Made by a program: the position numbers and the translations under genes | Notes under the pieces: model-generated | What the model saw: only the letters and a program-made list of their open reading frames with translations | Database searches by the model: none | What the model was told of the DNA's origin: nothing | Origin: Leucoraja erinacea | Lineage: Eukaryota | Direction: 5' to 3' | DNA: 64,000 bases | Assembly: GCF_028641065.1 (NCBI RefSeq) | Contig: NC_073377.1 | Location: 101,618,001 to 101,682,000, forward strand | Part shown: positions 14,033-61,186 of the stretch, one piece after another | Position numbering within the stretch: the stretch's first letter is position 1 | Layout of the letters: each line of letters begins with the position of its first letter

Positions 14033-17000
14033 AAAATAGTAAGATTAAACGAGAACTTACCAGTTTGAAGTTTGATCTGTATTTTATGAGGAGTTACGAT
14101 GAGGGATTACGTGAAGAGCCCGCCTCAGGACGCATGTGCGGCATACTTCAAAGCAGCGGTGTGGAATCACAGATAGACACAAGTATTTGAAGTAACATAG
14201 TAAAGAAATAGAGACATCAATTTATCAGTTTGATCCATATAATGAGGGTGGGAGCGGAGGGCACGTAATCCCTCATCGTAACTCCTCATAAAATACAGAT
14301 CAAACTTCAAACTGGTAAGTTCTCGTTTAATCTTACTATTTTACTTCGGAGTCACGTGAGTGACTACGTGAAGATTTCAAAGCTCTGTGATTTCAAACCG
14401 TGTAACAGCTATTACTACACCACTGCCGAAGTCTTTGAGGGAGGAAGTGTGTTATCGTAATCAACCAATGAATCTGTTTATAGAAAAACACAATGGTATT
14501 TTTACAATAACAATGAAGAAATTTAAATGCTCCCCTGGGCTAATTTAAATATTTGCAGACTCGAATCTTTCCTGCAAATAAAAAACAGGTTTTGTCAACA
14601 GCTTATAATAAATTTTTTCTCTGAACGTTTTCACCCCCACCATTCTGCTGTAGCCAGGATGTGGTTTATAGGCACGTCCATTCTTTTGCCGTTGACGTGG
14701 AAGCTTGTCCTGTGGAATGAAACTTTGTACATGTTAGTTTTATCCCAGCAGCTTTAGTACCTGCTTGAGCCATCCCAAAATGGCTCGTTACCCGACCACA
14801 AGGTTTTTTGTGACCAACCCACAAGGCTTTTCATCTCCCTCGAATATTTAGGTTGTGTCTATGTAGGGTAATAGGGTCATGGCACATTACCGTGTTTTCT
14901 GGCGGGTAAGCCCGGATTCTATGACTGGATAAGGTGTTCCTGGTCTGGTTTGACCATTCCCTGGACAATGATAGCGATCTGGTCTGAAGCTGTGAGCATG
15001 GTGTCCAGTTGCAATAGGAGTAGTGACTGGACCCTCTGTGCTGCTCCGAGTGCCCTCAACATATGTGTTTAGAGCATAGATGGTTCAGGTTGAGGGATCT
15101 GGCTGGTGGGCATCCCCTGAGGTATGGCAGTACCACTGTGACATCCCATATATGGGTGTACCTGGTCTAGGGGTTTAGAGTTGTAATACCCTTCATAGAT
15201 TTACCACCAGCCAGTGTGACCCCATGGCCTGTTGTCCTGTAGCTGTTTTGAAAAAACAGGCAGGGCAATTCTAGCTGTGTTCATGGTACTGTAGCCGAAT
15301 CCTTCATCATGGTGAAGGTTCACCAGGAATTCCAGTTCGTAGTAACTGTATCGGTTGAGTAGGTTATCCTTGTATCCTTGCAGTACTTCTCTTGATGCTG
15401 GACAAGTGCTGTAGTCCAGTGGATGTTCAGAGGGATGCTGACATGGTGTCGACGGTTCGGTATAATAATCCCAGTCCCAGATGTGGCTTGTGCAGAATCT
15501 GCAACCCAGGAGCTTAAATTTCCCATGGCACGGATGACTTGTGCCCGGCTCCGAGTGTTAATAATTCTGGGTCACTGGGGAATACCATCGAAGTTTCAAC
15601 AACCATGTCATGGAGTATTGGGAACCATGGCCGCGTAAGTCCGTCAGGTACTATCAAAATACCTGAAGCAGAGTCCTTTTGTACTGTGCGTAGTCCCCGA
15701 CTGATGAGGCAGAAGGGAAGAAATACATAGAAATAATTTCACCAATCCAGCGCGAACGCATTTGCTGCTCCAGGGTCTGGTTCCCACGCGACATACATAG
15801 GACATCACCCAAACACCTGGTGATTTAGCGTTGATGCAGATAATCGATATCTGGCGTGTCATATAGCTTGATAGTTTTATTGAAACTTTTTTATAAAAAA
15901 CATCTAATCGATGTTGTCATTAAATTTATGTGACCTGGTGTCTGTCACTGTATTTGGCTTACCAGGCAGGTAAGTTGCTGATAGTCAAATACATCTTTGG
16001 ACACACCATTGTCAAATTGTGTTGACCAACTTGTCGCATGATACCGACTTTATGCCGCCCATATGGTTAATGTAGGCCACCACCGTAGTGTAGTCTATTT
16101 ATAACCGTACATGCAAGTGCTTTAAATCCATAAAATTCACCCAAACATTTTTAGATAATTAATGCCCAGTATAAGTGGTAACCCCACCACTGTCTTTCTG
16201 ATATTACTTCAGTGGGTAACTTCATGAGACGCTCAATGACAACCTATATGTCGTTTTTGATACTAAGGTCCGAATTATGTAGACAGAAATGCTACTATTT
16301 TCCCAATTACTCTGTTACTTGTCGAGTAGTTGGTAGTTTGTTGACCATTAATTTGTTGCTTGTTTGTGCCAATTCAACTATGTTGTCTCTTGGCAACATT
16401 TATAGTCACGTAGACTGAATTAATATGAAACCCAAGATAGTCCAGGAAAGAGCTCTATATGCTGGTAGGAACCAGACCCACCTACCTCCATGGTTATTGG
16501 CGGTTTTGTCTTTTCTGTTTTCTGAGTGCTTTGTTCTGATGACGTGCTGGCGATGTTGGGGGGAGGCGCATTTTCCAGGGGGTCCGCGGCGGGCCCTGAT
16601 CTAAAAGATCTTTGGGGATAATGCGGCCCCAAGCGTTCACCAGTCCCATATTCTAGACGTCGACTGGTGGATGCCGTGGGGTGCTGCCGCTTGGGTATCG
16701 GAGGTCGTGGTTTGCTCGTCCCGGGGCCTGCCCTCATGATGCCGAAGGTTTTTGATGCCTCTTCCATCTCCTTCAGCTTTTTGTTCAGATCTCTCCCAAA
16801 TAGCAGTGAGTCTGCCTCCGCAGCTGGGGCTTTACACAAGCCTGCAAATTTGGGATTGAGGGCAGGTCTTATATTTTCCCTCCGGAGATTGTTTAGTTCG
16901 AATTGTGTGGTACACCTTAATGCCAGCACATCCTGCTGGTATGTATTCATCTCCGTTGTCTCCACAGAACGAGCATAGGCTGTGATAGCTGACGTCAGGA

Positions 17001-18648
17001 GCCTTAGGATCCGCTGTAGCTTGAGTTTTTGTGCCCGCATAAGGGCCCCCACATTTTCCCAGATTTGGCTGTTGAGGCTTTTTTCCCTTAAGGGCCTCAC
17101 AGTTCTCTGGTGCTGTATGTTCTTGCAGCACCTCGGCGAGCACCTTCTCCAGTAGAGGTTTGTTGGATAGGTGATTAATACTGGCTGCCATTTTTTGGCT
17201 CCAGCGGTGCTCCAGCCCGTGGGGTTGCTACGAAGCGGTCCACCACACCCAACAGCTGTTCCTGTTCCTGCACCCCATGCATACTCCCGATTTTGTCCGC
17301 CTGCCCCATTTCCCGACCAGCCCTGCCCTGGTCACCAATGCTAGCCTCCTGCTCCAGCCCGTGGTATGAGGTAGCAAAGGGCAGTGCCTGACACGACACT
17401 ATGGAGGAGGTACCTGTCCTGTCTCCCCGGGAGCGCTGCTGTTCCCGGTGGACCATCTCCTCCAGGAGCTGCTAAATGCAGCTCAGGCGGCTGTCTCTCT
17501 TGTGTTTTGGTGGAGACATGTCCCCCTCCGACGAATCGGAGACGACCGGCCGCTTGGCTTCCTGGCCGCTTTCCCAGTCCGCCGTGCAGGCTCTAGCGAG
17601 ACTGGGCTTGGCTCGGTCTCAGGGATAGCGAACGCTCTGAGAGCGACGCTGCCGCCGGTTGCTGCCCCGCTGGTAGAGTTGGAGCGGGGCAGTTTCTCTT
17701 TGAGAGTTTTCTGCGTTGTGACATGATTCCTGAAAGCCTGCAAAACACAACTGCAACTCACCTCTGTTATCCAATGCCCAAGAGCCGCTCCTGCAGCTCA
17801 GGCGGCTGTCTCTCCCCTCCTGGGTGGAGAGACGTCCCCGTCCGATGTCGGAACCACCGGCCGGTTTTTACATACATCCAGCCCGCTGCTCAGGCACTAG
17901 CGGGGCTGGGCTCAGTCGCAGTGTCGGGGTAGCGGACCGCCCGCTAAGCGGTCCTACCGCCTGTTGCTGTCCCCGCAATGAGACGCTCCTCCGTCGAGCG
18001 GGCAGGTGCAGCGTTCTTCCCAGCCCGCTGCTGAAGTGCTGACGGGATGGGCTTGGCGCAGTGTCGGGAGCGGAGCGCTGGTTAGCGGTCCTGCCGCGGT
18101 GCGCTCTCTCTCTCTCATGCACTCGGGCTGCTGTTAAAGTGCAGCGCACTCCACGCCAACACTGCGGTAGTGGGTCCGCCCCTTCATCGGCTCCGATGGT
18201 CGGAAGCCTCCGCCCGCCCGCCTGCCAGCCTTCACCTGGCCAGCTACTCGAGGGGCGAGCGAGGACTGAGGGGAACCTCCTGAGAGGAACGAGTGCAAGC
18301 GCCGTCTTCTCTCCGTTGTCGCCCCTGTGTGGAGTGGTACCGCACCGGCACAGCTCCCAGTCCGTGGTCCGCCGTGTGTGCGGTCCTGGTGGCGTCTTTC
18401 CCCCCCCCTTCCGCGAACGGAACACTCCTTCCCCGGAGTCCAAGGGGGCCGCTTGCATGCCCTACGAGGAACAAGCAGACGCGAGGGGCTGTTAGAATAA
18501 AGGTAAGTACTTACCTAAAGCTTAGTTTTTCAGATTGTAGCGGGAGCCCTGTCTCCCGCCGCCGCTGTTGCCTGCTGAAACGTAATGCCGCACATGCGTC
18601 CTGAGGCGGGCTCTTCACGTAGTCACTCACGTGACTCCCGAAGTAAAA
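14033..18648 (-). mobile_element. DIRS1-type tyrosine-recombinase retrotransposon, copy A (degenerate, RT deleted), in BMP2K intron 4
   Basis: 37-bp ITRs (18585-18621 vs 14108-14144). ICR at 14262-14374 is complementary to both termini. Gag-like ORF 16420-17100 (RRENIRPALNPKFAGLC...LLFG). RNaseH, MTase and YR remnants are colinear with copy B. Confidence 0.92.
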
Positions 18649-19092: not shown

Positions 19093-19186
19093 CCATAGCG
19101 CTATGTGTAAAGCCCATAGCGCTATGTGTAAAGCCCATAGCGCTATGTGTAAAGCCCATAGCGCTATGTGTAAAGCCCATAGCGCT
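19093..19186. repeat. 21-bp tandem repeat x4.5
   Basis: Identical ccatagcgctatgtgtaaagc units. Confidence 0.95.
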
Positions 19187-40537: not shown

Positions 40538-41134
40538 TCAATGCACAAGTTCTTACTTGTATAGTAATCCATTACACTTTAGCTTTTTGTTTGGAAATCC
40601 AACAGCAACAAATGTACTCGTTCCTTTCATCTAGCTTGCCAGTTACATCAAAGAATATTAATAAATTAGATATGCATAACTTCTAGTAGATAAAATTAGG
40701 CTGATTCTGCATAATTGTGTTATGATTGTCTTAACATTCTGCCTCTATTTACTGAACAATGGATTCCAACATTTCTCAATGACTGACATTAAGGCCAAGT
40801 GGTCCAGTTTTCTGTTTTGTCTCCCTCTTTTCGTCAATTCACAAGTTCTTACTTGTATAGTAATCCATTACACTTTAGCTTTTTGTTTGGAAATCCAACA
40901 GCAACAAATTTACTCGTTCCTTTCATCTAGCTTGCCAGTTACATCAAAGAATCTTAATAAATTAGATATGCATAACTTATAGTAGATAAAATTAGGTTGA
41001 TTCTGCATAATTGTGTTATGATTTTCTTAACATTCTGCCTCTATTTACTGAACAATGGATTCCAACATTTCTCAATGACTGACATTAAGGCCGAGTGGTC
41101 CAGTTTTCTGTTTTGTCTCCCTCTTTTCATCAAT
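40538..41134. repeat. 296-bp tandem duplication
   Basis: 40538-40833 is nearly identical to 40834-41129. Confidence 0.95.
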
Positions 41135-52400: not shown

Positions 52401-52627
52401 ACTACTAGACTAAGTGGGACCCGTTGGGTCCCATGTTCACACGGGAGGGCTGGTCCCCCGACGCAATATTCCACCTCCACCAATTCCAATATTGGTGGCC
52501 AGTGGGGGGGCTTTCTGGAGCGCTGGTATGGGTTCTTGGGGTGGCAGCTCAGTCCCTCAAGCCTGATGTGCTGGCAGTTCACTCACGACTGGTGGGCTGG
52601 CAGTTGTCTCATGGCTATTCCTTGAAA

Positions 52628-52860
52628 TTCCATTTCAAGCAGGGTGCAAGGCCACCAAATTCAAATCCATTTTCCAACCATTTCAAGCCATTTTCCAATC
52701 ATTTCAAGCAGGGTGCAAGGCCACCAAATTCAAGTGCAGTTTCTTACCACTTCGAGTATGGTGCAAGGCCACCAAATTCAAGTGCAGTTTCATACCATTT
52801 CATGCAGGGTGCAAGGCCACCCCATTCAAATGCAGTTTCATACCATTTCAAGCAGGGTGA
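52628..52860. repeat. ~48-bp minisatellite (inside Helitron)
   Basis: ccatttcaagcagggtgcaaggccaccaaattcaa units. Confidence 0.85.
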
Positions 52861-53236
52861 AACCACCATAAGACCACCATAAAACCACACAAAACACCAA
52901 ACTCACAGTTCAGTAGACATTCAGTGTGTTCAGTTGATTCACAGCTCAGACAGTCGTGACCTCCCCCTCCCCCGTCATGCAGAGTGAGCCACACCCACAC
53001 TTCCGGGTTTTATAACCCCTCCCCCTCCCACCGGAAAAGGTGTGGCCTTCATGGCGTAATTGACAGGAGAGAGATTCTCAACATTTTTTAAACACTAATA
53101 ACACTTTTGTTTTTCATTGATGGGAAGAATTCTCTGCACCTGCTGAGCGGATGGGGACTGAGTAAGATGGCCAAAAATCACAGCCATAAATTGTAGCGTT
53201 TTATCTAAAATCAATATACAGTGCAAACAGGAAGTT

Positions 53237-53414
53237 ACCCAAACCACCATTTGCAGTAGTGCCTTTTAACTTCAAGCCAAAGCACCCAAACCACCATTTG
53301 CAGTAGTGCCTTTTAACTTCAACCCAAAGCACCCAAACCACCATTTGCAGTAGTGCCTTTTAACTTCAAGCCAAAGCACCCAAACCACCATTTGCAGTAG
53401 TGCCTTTTAACTTC
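53237..53414. repeat. 47-bp minisatellite x~3.8 (inside Helitron)
   Basis: Unit acccaaaccaccatttgcagtagtgccttttaacttcaagccaaagc. Confidence 0.92.
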
Positions 53415-56157: not shown

Positions 56158-59100
56158 TTTTACTTCGGAGTCACGTGAGTGATTCCGTGAAGAGCCCGCT
56201 CAGCACGCATGCGTGACACATTGCGTTCACGCAGGCAACAGCGACGCAGCGGGAGTCAGGCACTCCCGCTACAAGCCTGAAGGAAAGGAACATTAGGTAA
56301 GTACTTACCTTCAGTTTAAAGTCGGTCTTTGCGTTTGTTTTTGCTCCAGGGGGAGCAAAGCAGCAGAGGGAAGCAGCCCCCGTTCGACTCCAGGGAAGGA
56401 GCCGGCAGTGGAGGGGGGAGAGGCGGCAAAGGGACCGCACACGCTGCGGTCCACAGACACGGGTGCTGCGCTGATGCCCAGTCCGCTAAAACAGCTGTCT
56501 GACCAACAGCAGCGGACTGGAGGGAAATTTAAAAACCGGCCGGCACCCCTGCAGACTCCCGACAAGGAGACTCGTCGCCCGAGAACCGCTGAAATGCCGC
56601 CCGAAAACGGCAGATAGCCTCTAACAGCAAGGTCAGGACCATCCTCGGGCTGGAGACATATACGGAAGATGGGATCAGCACTTCAAACAAGAAACAAGAG
56701 TGTCTGTTTCTCCAAACCCGAGGAAGGTCATGGAGCTAAAAACTCCAGCGAGACTTGCCTCAGGAGCAGGGGCAAGTCCGCCAAGGGAGCTAACACTCCC
56801 ACTCCAGTGCCTAACAGCACTGGCCATCTCCCTTGTCGAGGGATTGATGGGAACCAGAGCTGGGCTGGTCAAGAAGAGGGGTCACTGGCTGAACAACATC
56901 GGGAGTATGCTTGAGGTACAGGATCAGGAAAAGCTGCTGGGTGTGGCCACTATGCGGCTCCACCACTAGCGAGATGGCTTTTCAGTCTCAACTGGTGGCC
57001 AGCTTACTACCTGTTCTTTTCAAAAAACCCTCTCCAAGACAGGTAGTCATGAGGTTTCATCACGCCTCCCCTAAATTGCATTTACTCAGTGCCCACCGTT
57101 ATTGGGGGGTACATTGAGCATAGCTTTTAAAAACCCAAATATCTTAAAATGAATTTGATATCCCTGACGCGGTTATCATTTTCGCATGCTCTTTCCAGAG
57201 GGTCAGGGTAGTATGGCAAAACACCTGACCCTACTGTTCGGAGTGCTCCGCAACTTCTCAGGAAGTTATAAAACCTGCCCTCAACTCAAAAAATTTTACA
57301 GGACTGTGAAAACGCCGACCTCACAACCACAGATCCTGCTGTCTGGCTAAGTTACCAAACCAAGCCTAAAAAACTGGACAAAGTGCCCAAAATATTCGGC
57401 GCAAGAGGGCAGGGTCTGGAATGAGCACCACATGTAAACCAGTCAGCAGTATCTCTAACGCGTCCACCAGGAGGGTCTACCTCATGGTACTGGTGAAAGC
57501 TCGGGGCCTGCATGCCAATCCCGTAAGCCTTTCAGGCCAGGGCCCAGAGCAGGCCCCATGGAAAATGCACCCCCCAACATCACCGCCACGTCAGACAACA
57601 TGCAAGGTATGCACATCGTTGGACCGGCAGGAAACAGAAGAATACCCATAACCATGGAGGTAGGTGGGTCTGGTTCCTACCAACGTATAGAAAATTGGGG
57701 CTTAATACTAACAGGGGGGGGAGATTACACCTGTTTTAAGAAGCACGGGAGTCTATCACAAGTGATCAGTATATACTCAATGGCTTTAGTGGATACAAAA
57801 TACAATTCATACTAGAAAAATTGCCACCAGTTCATCATTTACCGCAGAGGGTATTTTCCCTCTCCGTTAAAGAAACGAGAGGGACAAGCTGAACTGGTGA
57901 GACTAATTACAAAGGGTATCATGGGAAACATGAACCATTGGAATTCGTATTAAATATTCGTCACTAAACCCAAAAAGATGGTGGATGTCGCATCATCATT
58001 GACTTAACTTCACTAAATATGTTTGTTAAGTATATACATTTCAAAATGGAAACGGTTGTTACTGCCAAACAACTAATTTCTAATGGATACTTCATGGCAA
58101 GCATTGATCTTAAAGATGTTTTTCTTTTTCTTTTTTATTTTGTATGGATTTATTGACATTTAATCTATTCAATTAGTTTAATCAATCTCTGTAAAGCACT
58201 TTGGTTATAAGTGATTTTGTTTAAAAGTGTTATATAAATAAATATTATTATTATTATTATTACTATTTAGTACCATTCACAAGGATCATCGCAGATACCT
58301 GAAATTTACCTGGATGGGGCAGCTATGGCAATTTAAAGCGTTACCGAATGGGTTCACATCAGCCCAAGATTATTCACCAAGATACTAAAACCAGCACTGG
58401 CAATATTCACAAGACAAAAACATATTGTCATGGCATATCTTGATGATATCTTAAAAAATAGGCAAGACCATGGAATTGACTATGTTAGCTGTATCAGCTA
58501 CCAAACAGTTATTCGAAACCCTGGGATTGTCTTACATCCAGATAAATCTAAGTTGAAGCCATCCACAATCATGGACTACTTGGGCTTCACAAATAATTCA
58601 GTCTACGTGACTGTAACATTGCCAAGAGACAAAACAGTTGAATTGGCACAATCATGCAACAATTTAATGGTCCACGTACTCCCAACTATTCGACAAGTAA
58701 CAGAGTAATTGGGAAAATGGTAGCAGCATTTCCGGCTACACAATTCGGACCTTTGCACTGTCAAAACTTACAAAGAGCAAAGGTACAGGCACCAAAACGA
58801 CATACAGGTCATTATGATTGTGTCATGAAGTTACCCACTGAAGTAATATCAGAACTACAGTGGTGGGCAAAAAACGTTTGGCATAATTTCAGCCTATTAT
58901 CATCACTAACCCTACGTCAGTTATCCAAACAGATGCCAATGCTCAAGGCTGGGGAGCAACTAACTCTATATCCAGCACAAGTAGTAGATGGACTAACCCA
59001 GAGTCATCGTTACCACTTACACTGGGCATTAATTATCTACAGATGTTGGGTGACTTTTATGGTTTAAAAGCATATGCACAAATATGCATCACTTGCATGT

Positions 59101-61186
59101 ACGGTTACAAATAGATAATACTACGGTGGTGGCCTACATTAACCATATGGGTGGCATAAAATCGGTATCATGCGACAAGTTGGTCAACACAATTTGGCAA
59201 TGGTGTGTCGAAAGACATATTTGGCTATCAGTAACTTACCTGCCAGGTAAGCTAAATACCTGGCAGACACCAGGTCACGTACATTTAATGACAACATCGA
59301 ATGGATGTTAAACCCCAAAAAATTTGCAAAAGTTATCAAGCAATATGGCATGCCAGATATCGATTTATTTGCATCAAGGCTAAATCACCAGGTACCTATC
59401 TATGTTGCTTGGGAACCAGACCCTGAGGCAGCAGCGGTAGATGAGTTCGCGCTGGATTGGGGAAATTCGTCTTCTATGCATTTCCTCCCTTCTGCCTCAT
59501 CAGTTGGGGACTACGCACAATACAAATGCTTCAGGTATTTTGATAGTACCCGACTGGCCTACGCAGCCATGGTTCCCAATACTCCATGACATGGTTGTTG
59601 AAGCTCCGATGGTATTCCCCAGTGACCCAGAGTTATTAACACCCAGTGTCGGGCACAAGCCACCCGTGCCATGAAAAAATCAAACTCCTGGGTTGCAGAT
59701 TCTGCACAAGCCACTTCTGGGACTGGGATTATCAGAACAAACCGTCGACACCATGTCAGTATCCCTCCGAATATCCACTAAAAAACAGCACTTGTCCAGC
59801 ATCAAGAAATGGGAGAAGTACTGCTTGGATACAGGGACCACCTACTAAACCGCTACAGTTACCAATGTACTGGAATTCCTGGCGAACCTTCACCACGATG
59901 AAGGACTCAGCTACAGAGCCATCAACACAGCTAGAAGTGCCCTGCCTGTCTATTTAAAACCAACTCCAGGACAACAGGCCATGGGGTCCCACGTGGTCAA
60001 ACTAATGTAGGGTATTTACTACTCTAACCCCCTAGACCAAGGTACACCCATACATGGGATGTCAGTGTGGTCGTGACATACCTCAGGGGATGGCCACCAG
60101 CCAGATCCCTCAACCTGGAACAATCTATGCTCAAAACACTCATGTTCATGGCACTTGTATCTGCACAGAGGGTCCAGTCACTACACCTATTGCGACTGGA
60201 CAGCATGCTCACAGCTCCAGATCAGATCTCTGTCGTTATCCAGGGACTGATCAAACAGAGCAGACCAGGAACACCTAATCCAGTCGTGGAATTCCGGGCT
60301 TACCCGCCAGAACCACGGTTATGTGCCATGACCCACCTACTATCCTACATAGACACAACCAAAATATTCGAGGGAGATGAAAAGCCTTGTGGGTCAGTCA
60401 TAAAAAACCTTATGGTCGGGTGACGAGCCAAACCATTGCGAGATGGCTCAAGCAGGTGCTAAAACTGCTGGGATAAACACTAACATGTACAAATTTTATT
60501 CCACCAGGGCAGCATCCACGTTGACGGCTAAAAGAATGGATGTCCCTATAGACCACATCCTGGCTACAGCAGGATGGTCGGGGAAAGACCGTTCAGAAAT
60601 CTTATAATAAGCCTTTGGCAAAACCTGTTTTATTTGCAGGAAAGATTTTACGGACTGCAAATATTTAATTTAAGCCCCGGGGAGGGAGCAATTTATTTTC
60701 TTTGTTGTTATTGTTAAAAAATACCATTGTGTTTTTCTACAAACAGATTCATTGGTTGATTACGATAACACACTTCCTCCCTCAAGGACTTCGGCAGTGC
60801 GTGTAGTAATAACTGTTACACGGTTTGAAATCACAGAGCTTTGAAGTCTTCACAGAATCACTCACATGACTCCGAAGTAAAATAGTAAGATTAAACGAGA
60901 ACTTACCAGTTTGAAGTTTGATCTGTATTTTATGAGGAGTTACGATGAGGGATTACGTGCCCTCCGCTCCCACCCTCAATAATATGGGTCAAGCTGATAA
61001 ACTGATGTCTCCTTGTCTTTACTATGTTTACTTCAATAACTGTGTCTATCTGTAATTCCACACCGCTGCTTTGAAGTATGTCGCGCATGCGTGCTGAGTG
61101 GGCTCTTCACATAATCCCTCATCATAACTTCTCATAAAATACAGGTCAAACTTCAAACTGGTAAGTTCTCGTTTAATCTTACTATT
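56158..61186 (+). mobile_element. DIRS1-type tyrosine-recombinase retrotransposon, copy B (near full length, frameshifted)
   Basis: RT motifs (FKMETV, FKALPNGF, MAYLDDIL), RNaseH (TDA..QGWGA, DNTTVVAYINHMGG), methyltransferase-like (DLFAS, FYAFPP) and YR (LALVSAQRV-like, YSTRAAS, AGWS). ICR at 60847-60959; right ITR plus extension 61084-61186. Confidence 0.93.
58119..58260 (+). mobile_element. LINE/SINE 3' tail (L2-like) inserted into DIRS RT
   Basis: tgtaaagcacttt...aaagtgttatataaataaa(tat)n, interrupting the RT between DLKD and YYLVP. Confidence 0.7.

Follow-up and report, generated by a model that had tools for sequence, protein, structure and literature searches.

Splice-like sites and a predicted donor-centred hairpin in the leaders of a DIRS1-like family of Leucoraja erinacea

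Two DIRS1-like elements in a 64,000-nt stretch of the Leucoraja erinacea genome (hereafter the window) share, shortly after their starts, a perfect 16-bp palindrome that contains a consensus splice donor, and in both an acceptor-like AG closes a span of exactly 53 nt. The earlier note on this DNA read the arrangement as a conserved micro-intron with a palindromic, possibly self-masking donor that separates genomic RNA from mRNA, or else as an orientation-independent U1 site. Here, we ask what such a donor does in the leader of an element whose RNA must stay unspliced. The wider question is how DIRS elements express three ORFs from one RNA and retain a full-length copy for replication. The palindrome and the 53-nt span turn out to be less special than first noted, and the signals found across the family more so.

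Two DIRS1-like copies in the window

Copies A and B both have inverted termini, an internal complementary region (ICR), and a right extension, and they match the reverse transcriptase (RT) and tyrosine-recombinase frames of relatives in pieces. In the relatives L064 and L083, self-comparison gave inverted terminal repeats of 64-65 nt with 88-89% identity, and the ICR is complementary to both outer ends, over 78 nt and 37 nt at 100%; the ICR is present in the window as well. L083, whose frames are open, matches RVT_1 (E 2e-19) and Phage_integrase (E 1e-7). Ten ORFs of the window gave no match in Pfam, and three loci gave none in Rfam at the gathering score. Judged by sequence, the window elements are ordinary DIRS1-like members. 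They share the inverted termini with extensions, the ICR, and the order ORF1 - RT - recombinase with the DIRS1-like elements treated in the available text of PMC3266345 and PMC7192593; what differs here is that four donor-like and two acceptor-like sites are conserved, including in non-coding subfamilies. The features of the two copies are as follows (a slash in a motif marks the splice point).

14036..18648, minus strand: DIRS1-like element copy A, an ORF-dead member of palindrome subfamily A, with termini, ICR, and rE located and each of the three frames interrupted by stops
18591..18648, minus strand: left extension and left inverted repeat of copy A, containing donor-like CAC/GTGAGT
18540..18559, minus strand: GC-rich hairpin of the first exon, copy A, from single-sequence folds
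18501..18516, minus strand: palindrome of copy A, leader donor D1 (AG/GTAAGT) plus its own complement
18462..18514, minus strand: donor-to-acceptor span of copy A, 53 nt, ending in acceptor-like site A1
18489..18495, minus strand: CTAAC (18491-18495) followed directly by AG, copy A only
17718..17750, minus strand: second acceptor-like site and ATG inside copy A, resembling the leader end of another subfamily (mosaic)
16591..16608, minus strand: decayed T-run at the ORF1 end of copy A (predicted -1 frameshift site in open relatives)
16480..16491, minus strand: internal donor-like site D2 (ATG GAG/GTAGGT) at the ORF2 ATG, copy A
15499..15512, minus strand: acceptor-like site A2 at the recombinase frame start, copy A
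14262..14374, minus strand: ICR, copy A
14036..14108, minus strand: right extension of copy A, with terminal donor-like site D3 (14055-14063)
56158..61185, plus strand: DIRS1-like element copy B, ORF-dead, palindrome subfamily B
56158..56213, plus strand: left terminus, copy B
56249..56269, plus strand: GC-rich hairpin of the first exon, copy B
56295..56310, plus strand: palindrome with leader donor D1, copy B
56297..56349, plus strand: donor-to-acceptor span of copy B, 53 nt, ending in A1
57528..57545, plus strand: decayed T-run at the ORF1 end, copy B
57654..57665, plus strand: internal donor-like site D2, copy B
59685..59698, plus strand: acceptor-like site A2, copy B
60847..60959, plus strand: ICR, copy B
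61113..61185, plus strand: right extension of copy B, with D3 (61158-61166)

The palindrome, AGGTAAGTACTTACCT, lies about 134 nt inside copy A and about 139 nt inside copy B. It is perfect at 18501-18516 and 56295-56310, as the earlier note had stated, and no third match occurs in the window at up to three mismatches (shuffle mean 0.21). The 53-nt GT..AG spans (18514-18462 on the minus strand, 56297-56349 on the plus strand) were likewise found in both copies. Finer details of the proposed intron proved not to be general. The CTAAC described as its branch point is present, 20-24 nt behind the donor and with an AG immediately after it, but it is peculiar to copy A, and the eight other copies of the subfamily read TTAC instead. 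An ATG does follow the acceptor of copy A by 3 nt, but among these eight sisters only L022 has it, and copy B has none. In the window copies, branch-like motifs are 11-24 nt away from the donor, and the alignment does not clearly equate the AG of subfamily A with that of subfamily B.

The left termini of both copies carry CACGTG and GCGCATGCG-like motifs, which overlap the donor-like CAC/GTGAGT and which we take to resemble E-box and NRF1 promoter sites. At the other end, D3 (donor-like TG/GTAAGT) stands 25 nt before the element end and is mirrored in the ICR as a donor of the antisense RNA. It could set the RNA 3' end or splice into host exons. Because D3 is constrained by ICR pairing, its conservation proves little.

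Donor, acceptor, and a predicted hairpin in the family's leaders

The leaders were surveyed with a left-terminus pattern that excludes the donor. It has 6338 matches in the genome, and the census comprises 92 of the first 100 places listed for it, chosen blind to the donor. AG/GTRAG was present in 86 of the 92 element starts, at +113 to +150 from the element start apart from one exception with a poly-C insert; conservation of the leader donor thus holds, and more widely than the earlier note knew. The perfect palindrome was found in 19 of the 92. Genome-wide there are 1380 exact palindromes, compared with 1 for the reversed control, and together with the left-terminus matches they indicate that the window copies share the motif by descent.

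The 88 donor-bearing leaders, including the two window copies, formed 37 clusters at 86% identity, and removal of five single copies broken just 3' of the donor left 32 subfamilies. When an acceptor-like site was defined as a YAG preceded by a T-rich pyrimidine tract, 14-72 nt past the donor, 25 of the 32 subfamilies had one, compared with 74 of 640 control windows; the acceptor is unclear in six subfamilies or copies. The distance from donor to acceptor ranges from 21 to 70 nt and is 31 nt or less in 12 of 74 scored copies. In open-ORF1 subfamilies, an ATG follows A1 by 2-19 nt and the span is often 22-31 nt. These counts therefore establish donor and acceptor as real and family-wide, and a length that is not conserved. 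Variable spacing had been named beforehand as the outcome that would speak against a fixed-length intron, and the census gave exactly that. Palindrome copies themselves span 42-58 nt, 2 of 19 have exactly 53, and the length shared by copies A and B is a coincidence rather than a family trait.

Consensus donor, pyrimidine tract, and YAG give the leaders U2-type ends; a workable length and branch-point position were not found across the family. According to the available text of PMC13644364, introns of about 30 nt and below are generally absent from animals, and the 21-31 nt spans of coding subfamilies lie at or under this floor. A length of 53 nt is by itself not impossible, since splicing is documented for human introns of 43, 49, and 56 nt (PMC4463651, available text). 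It falls within the 37-65 nt of the human ultra-short introns treated there, and the GT..AG ends are alike. However, those introns keep their length between species and most are G-rich, whereas the leader span is T-rich, ranges over 21-70 nt, and yielded no spliced product in this analysis.

The palindrome is predicted to fold into a 6-bp stem with a GUAC loop (-4.2 kcal/mol), and the preferred fold of copy B leaves the donor open. A scan for hairpin centres over 47 positions in the 32 subfamilies was strongest at +4 and +8 of the donor (mean z -1.31 and -1.38, with 14 and 17 of 32 under -1.5); the palindrome centre is +6. An 8-pair stem from the exon end to a CTG motif, hand-drawn from two rows and tested on 18 of the 32 subfamilies chosen for showing the stem, reached 80% pairing, with both sides changed in 4 of its 8 pairs, well above slid controls and matched by 1 of 500 and 2 of 500 shuffles. 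A partner-swap test of cognate pairing gave p 5e-5, with 2 of 10 control windows reaching p 6e-4. RNAalifold returned no consensus structure at the donor region or first exon in two alignments. Of 33 donor windows, 23 fold better in the sense than in the antisense strand. With evidence on both sides, a donor-centred hairpin in the leader is a moderately supported prediction.

Special masking of the donor by the palindrome, as proposed in the earlier note, was rejected, as opening the donor would cost 4.8 kcal/mol in palindrome leaders, below the 6.5 of other subfamilies and the 5.9 of a typical leader 9-mer. Pairing of the donor with what we take to be the U1 motif would still be energetically favourable despite the fold. 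Since the donor (about 6 kcal/mol) is no less accessible than an average 9-mer and U1 pairing is favourable, any damping would be mild at most. In most of the 32 subfamilies, single-sequence folds also place a GC-rich hairpin with differing letters 20-45 nt ahead of the donor, which is a candidate packaging signal.

The palindrome lineage

All 16 full-length palindrome copies are ORF-dead, with 4-23 stops in the recombinase alignment and with ORF1 and ORF2 broken or partly lost, and they still keep D1. The ORF1 start of L020 and L077 is absent from most palindrome copies. Sister copies are mostly 96-99% alike. The palindrome subfamilies are non-autonomous and amplified in trans, and a switch between genomic RNA and mRNA is not supported in copies that code for nothing. 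The minus strand does read AG/GTAAGT, as the claim of a donor on both strands requires, but this two-strand form is confined to part of the family.

In a weak tree of the first exon, built from 117 columns with the palindrome and L088 left out, all 10 perfect-palindrome rows belong to a single group of 13 whose support is weak (88/80). The L055 group, which is near-palindromic, stands apart, beside L020, and the shortened L068 lies inside the palindrome group; because of these two placements, a single clade of palindrome and near-palindrome rows was rejected (p-AU 0.005 on this weak tree). Perfect palindromes occur in 19 of 22 sampled copies of the tree group. Between subfamilies, neighbouring letters are only about 40-60% alike; between five subfamily representatives they are 38-46% alike (ungapped), and the first exon is 76% alike. 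These five had been selected for carrying the palindrome, which makes the 100% in the arms partly circular. The second palindrome half could be held by selection or by template-switch repair. Subfamily C, with 93 perfect palindromes among 100 listed of 172, varies too little for a comparison of the arms, and one-letter breaks recur (L043, L045, 2 of the 100 listed subfamily C copies, and the L055 group). The palindrome is confined to one ORF-dead lineage. It is best read as a derived compact form of the predicted donor-centred hairpin, and taken alone it is a lineage quirk.

A second lineage (L050, L053, L063, L082, L086, and L090) carries an ACTTACC(T)-like motif, the anti-donor, just before the leader acceptor, and several of its copies repeat leader pieces internally. 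Counting the palindrome lineage, the anti-donor has about two origins, and it carries little weight as evidence.

Splicing, expression signals, and a proposed role of the leader donor

Intron-less genomic copies, which the earlier note had suggested looking for, were not found. Exact patterns for joined D1-A1 (subfamily A, subfamilies B/C, and the 22-24 nt group) and for joined D2-A2, D1-A2, and D1 to the ORF1-end T-run had zero matches in the genome; these six patterns represent only some subfamilies, compared with 1380 palindromes and 6338 starts. A spliced RNA that was replicated would have lost the intron, so the replicated RNA is unspliced; the result also fits spliced RNA that is produced yet never packaged. 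Putative RNA contigs from four studies, placed on L064:1-4500, gave zero cover at 301-600, where the acceptor lies, and no GT..AG joint elsewhere. Two apparent spliced copies were rejected as deletions. The second element of L068, with its first exon joined about 450 nt on, is a single copy with an AGGT overlap, and L017 is similar. No AATAAA or ATTAAA hexamer occurs within 500 nt of D1 in seven of seven copies; the first stands at least 650 nt in.

ORF2 starts with ATG GAG/GTAGGT (D2). The D2 9-mer keeps 95/96 letters in 12/13 ORF-dead copies alignable there, against a background of 0.877 for columns that never vary in coding copies (a score equalled by 1.3% of 383 windows), and a 24-nt island at D2 is kept in ORF-dead subfamilies. 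The recombinase frame is conserved exactly from the phase-0 acceptor-like site A2 onward. In a survey of 13 copies (two further copies gave no match), the in-frame TAG is the site itself in 6, a stop stands at most 20 codons before it in 11, and the first Met of the frame lies at varying places behind conserved residues. A2 is retained at 49/54 in dead copies, which is not significant, and it is weakened as evidence because its AG falls within a conserved Arg codon of ORF2. Since a D2-A2 junction would preserve the frame, a spliced recombinase mRNA from which the RT frame is deleted is predicted.

Near the ORF1 end, T TTT TTA stands in the phase of ORF1, in 16 of 19 copies (L083, L066, and others) the -1 frame stays open as far as the ORF2 ATG, and the distances differ by multiples of 3. 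Frameshifting by -1 of this type occurs in HIV. The site is predicted to cause a programmed -1 frameshift that would yield a Gag-Pol fusion, and in the window copies it has decayed. The alternative that the T-run and AG form an acceptor was rejected, the frameshift site being the better fit. Given the frameshift and D2-A2 routes, D1 would not be needed for RT or recombinase expression. D1 survives in subfamilies that express nothing.

The reading that we put forward, plausible if still short of probable, is that the donor of the leader hairpin, of which the palindrome would be a compact form, works as a U1 docking site on genomic RNA, with A1 too close to be joined. That the acceptor may lie anywhere from 21 to 70 nt off suggests a donor hairpin that likely keeps the RNA unspliced, not a fixed intron of 53 bases. 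Bound to the promoter-proximal D1, U1 would support transcription to full length, as it does at the major splice donors of retroviruses. D1 would be tied up by the stem and by an A1 that lies too close, A1 perhaps acting as a decoy that diverts it, so that joining to distant acceptors would be seldom. The reason would be that splicing removes leader sequence from the RNA, and neither the ICR nor the inverted repeats could bring it back. In the palindrome lineage, the donor would be kept and paired with its own complement, as non-coding parasites gain from unspliced RNA only. The HIV-1 major splice donor lies in the SL2 hairpin. In the replication model given in the available text of PMC7192593, transcription of DIRS elements begins inside the left repeat and restoration is limited to the termini; the replicated RNA must therefore contain exon 1 and the span. 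Splicing-independent action of U1 at a leader donor is described for foamy virus (PMC3694450) and HIV (PMC6625037) in the text available, and the likeness to these retroviral donors extends to the position ahead of the first ORF, the predicted local structure, and an RNA that must stay unspliced. Unlike them, the present leaders have no nearby 5' poly(A) site, an acceptor 21-70 nt on, inverted rather than direct termini, and U1 binding that we infer.

A doubtful, if serious, alternative is that D1 and A1 are independent ordinary sites, D1 joining distant acceptors in coding elements and A1 trapping upstream donors for ORF1, be they in host exons, in the left extension, or in the right extension of a tandem or circular copy. 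The palindrome would then be incidental, having arisen when template switching perfected an ACTTAC next to the donor that resembles a branch point. The ATG 2-19 nt behind A1 in open-ORF1 subfamilies agrees with this, as do the TTAC 3' of the donor in the non-palindromic L040, L070, and L077 and the 11 genome matches to a terminus-to-terminus junction pattern, 10 of which are tandem elements; a tandem copy of the subfamily A type was not found. DIRS ORF1 was moreover exonised twice in mammals, in LAP2alpha and ZNF451, with an acceptor on the element inferred in that study (PMC4495291). An acceptor ahead of ORF1 would explain these events, and it is seen in the elements here; the available text of that paper does not locate the acceptor site, nor a donor or hairpin. 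However, A1 and D1 are kept in ORF-dead subfamilies without an ORF1 start, where trapping gains nothing, and no genomic copy matched the exact patterns that join D1 to A2 or to the ORF1-end T-run. Quite improbable is a true ultra-short intron that mRNA loses by splicing and genomic RNA keeps, at least in the subfamilies with spans of 42-58 nt. Most subfamilies have the consensus GT..AG ends and pyrimidine tract, the spliced human introns of 43, 49, and 56 nt set a precedent (PMC4463651, available text), and an RNA without the span would lack the hairpin and might not be packaged, which would account for the absence of intron-less copies. Such an intron is at odds with the 21-31 nt spans in coding subfamilies and the lack of a common length, with candidate branch points 11-24 nt from the donor, with a palindrome lineage that has no protein to express, and with zero intron-less copies in subfamilies A, B/C, and the 22-24 nt group.

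Other readings centre on the palindrome or build further on U1. The palindrome might let two RNA or single-stranded cDNA molecules pair as a 16-bp duplex, or its ACUUACCU half might dock on the universal donor of helper RNAs for co-packaging, and we give the two together little probability. The calculated homoduplex is far stronger than the hairpin (-24.4 compared with -4.2 kcal/mol, duplex energy only), but any hairpin can form such a duplex, and instead of a self-complementary sequence in an exposed loop, the 16-mer stems with itself (6 bp), with GUAC alone looped, and is exposed only in an alternative fold of copy B. DIRS-1 replicates via single-stranded cDNA (PMC7192593, available text). 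The span of a second, distant ORF-dead lineage (L050, L086, and L090 groups) contains an anti-donor, ACTTAC(C/T), that is absent from all five subfamilies whose long open frames total >1300 aa (control rate 40 of 720 windows); yet it arose only about twice, L077 and L095 also carry it, the ORF-dead groups L051/L100 and L105 lack it, and one-letter breaks of the palindrome recur. A dyad for a dimeric protein at the DNA level, or an orientation-independent U1 site affecting host transcripts, is hard to credit. Perfect symmetry in 19 of 22 lineage copies amid diverged neighbouring letters and the donor read on the minus strand would suit these two, but about four in five family members lack the palindrome and replicate, and the sense strand folds better in most donor windows. 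The protein-binding site named as a fallback in the earlier note is not favoured because the pairing persists in other subfamilies whose loops differ in size. A joint scheme for vertebrate-type DIRS elements, unlikely as a whole, would have an unspliceable leader micro-intron trap the spliceosome on genomic RNA, a second intron delete the RT frame to give the recombinase mRNA, and non-coding parasites twice evolve a U1-mimicking anti-donor, the palindrome being one, that shuts or shares the donor.

Native splice sites are not mentioned in the available text of PMC3266345, PMC7192593, and the Xenopus survey PMC9210276; in that of PMC3266345 and PMC9210276 the words 'splic' and 'intron' do not occur, and that of PMC7192593 treats only marker introns. 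Nothing on DIRS leader splice sites appears in the available text of PMC9341512 and PMC13003380, and no description of these signals was found in the main texts on DIRS splicing, introns, and hosts outside subscription reviews. The family offers precise testable junctions, namely the leader donor and acceptor, the in-phase recombinase pair, and the -1 frameshift site. That non-coding subfamilies retain donor-like sites suggests a role of splice signals unrelated to protein making. With >6000 copies, each carrying strong donors and acceptors, the family could shape host transcripts.

ORF-dead subfamilies (L046-L105) are mostly near 4.5-5 kb, internal duplications balancing deletions, with exceptions of 2.1, 1.4, and 0.24 kb, and a size constraint is possible. 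Tandem elements (L106-L116, L098) are joined exactly end to start, often from different subfamilies, and in L111, L112, L114, and L098 the spacer from the ICR to the end is inverted. The window also holds short tandem arrays at 19093-19176, 40538-41129, and 52620-53414, with units of 21, 296, 48, and 47 nt.
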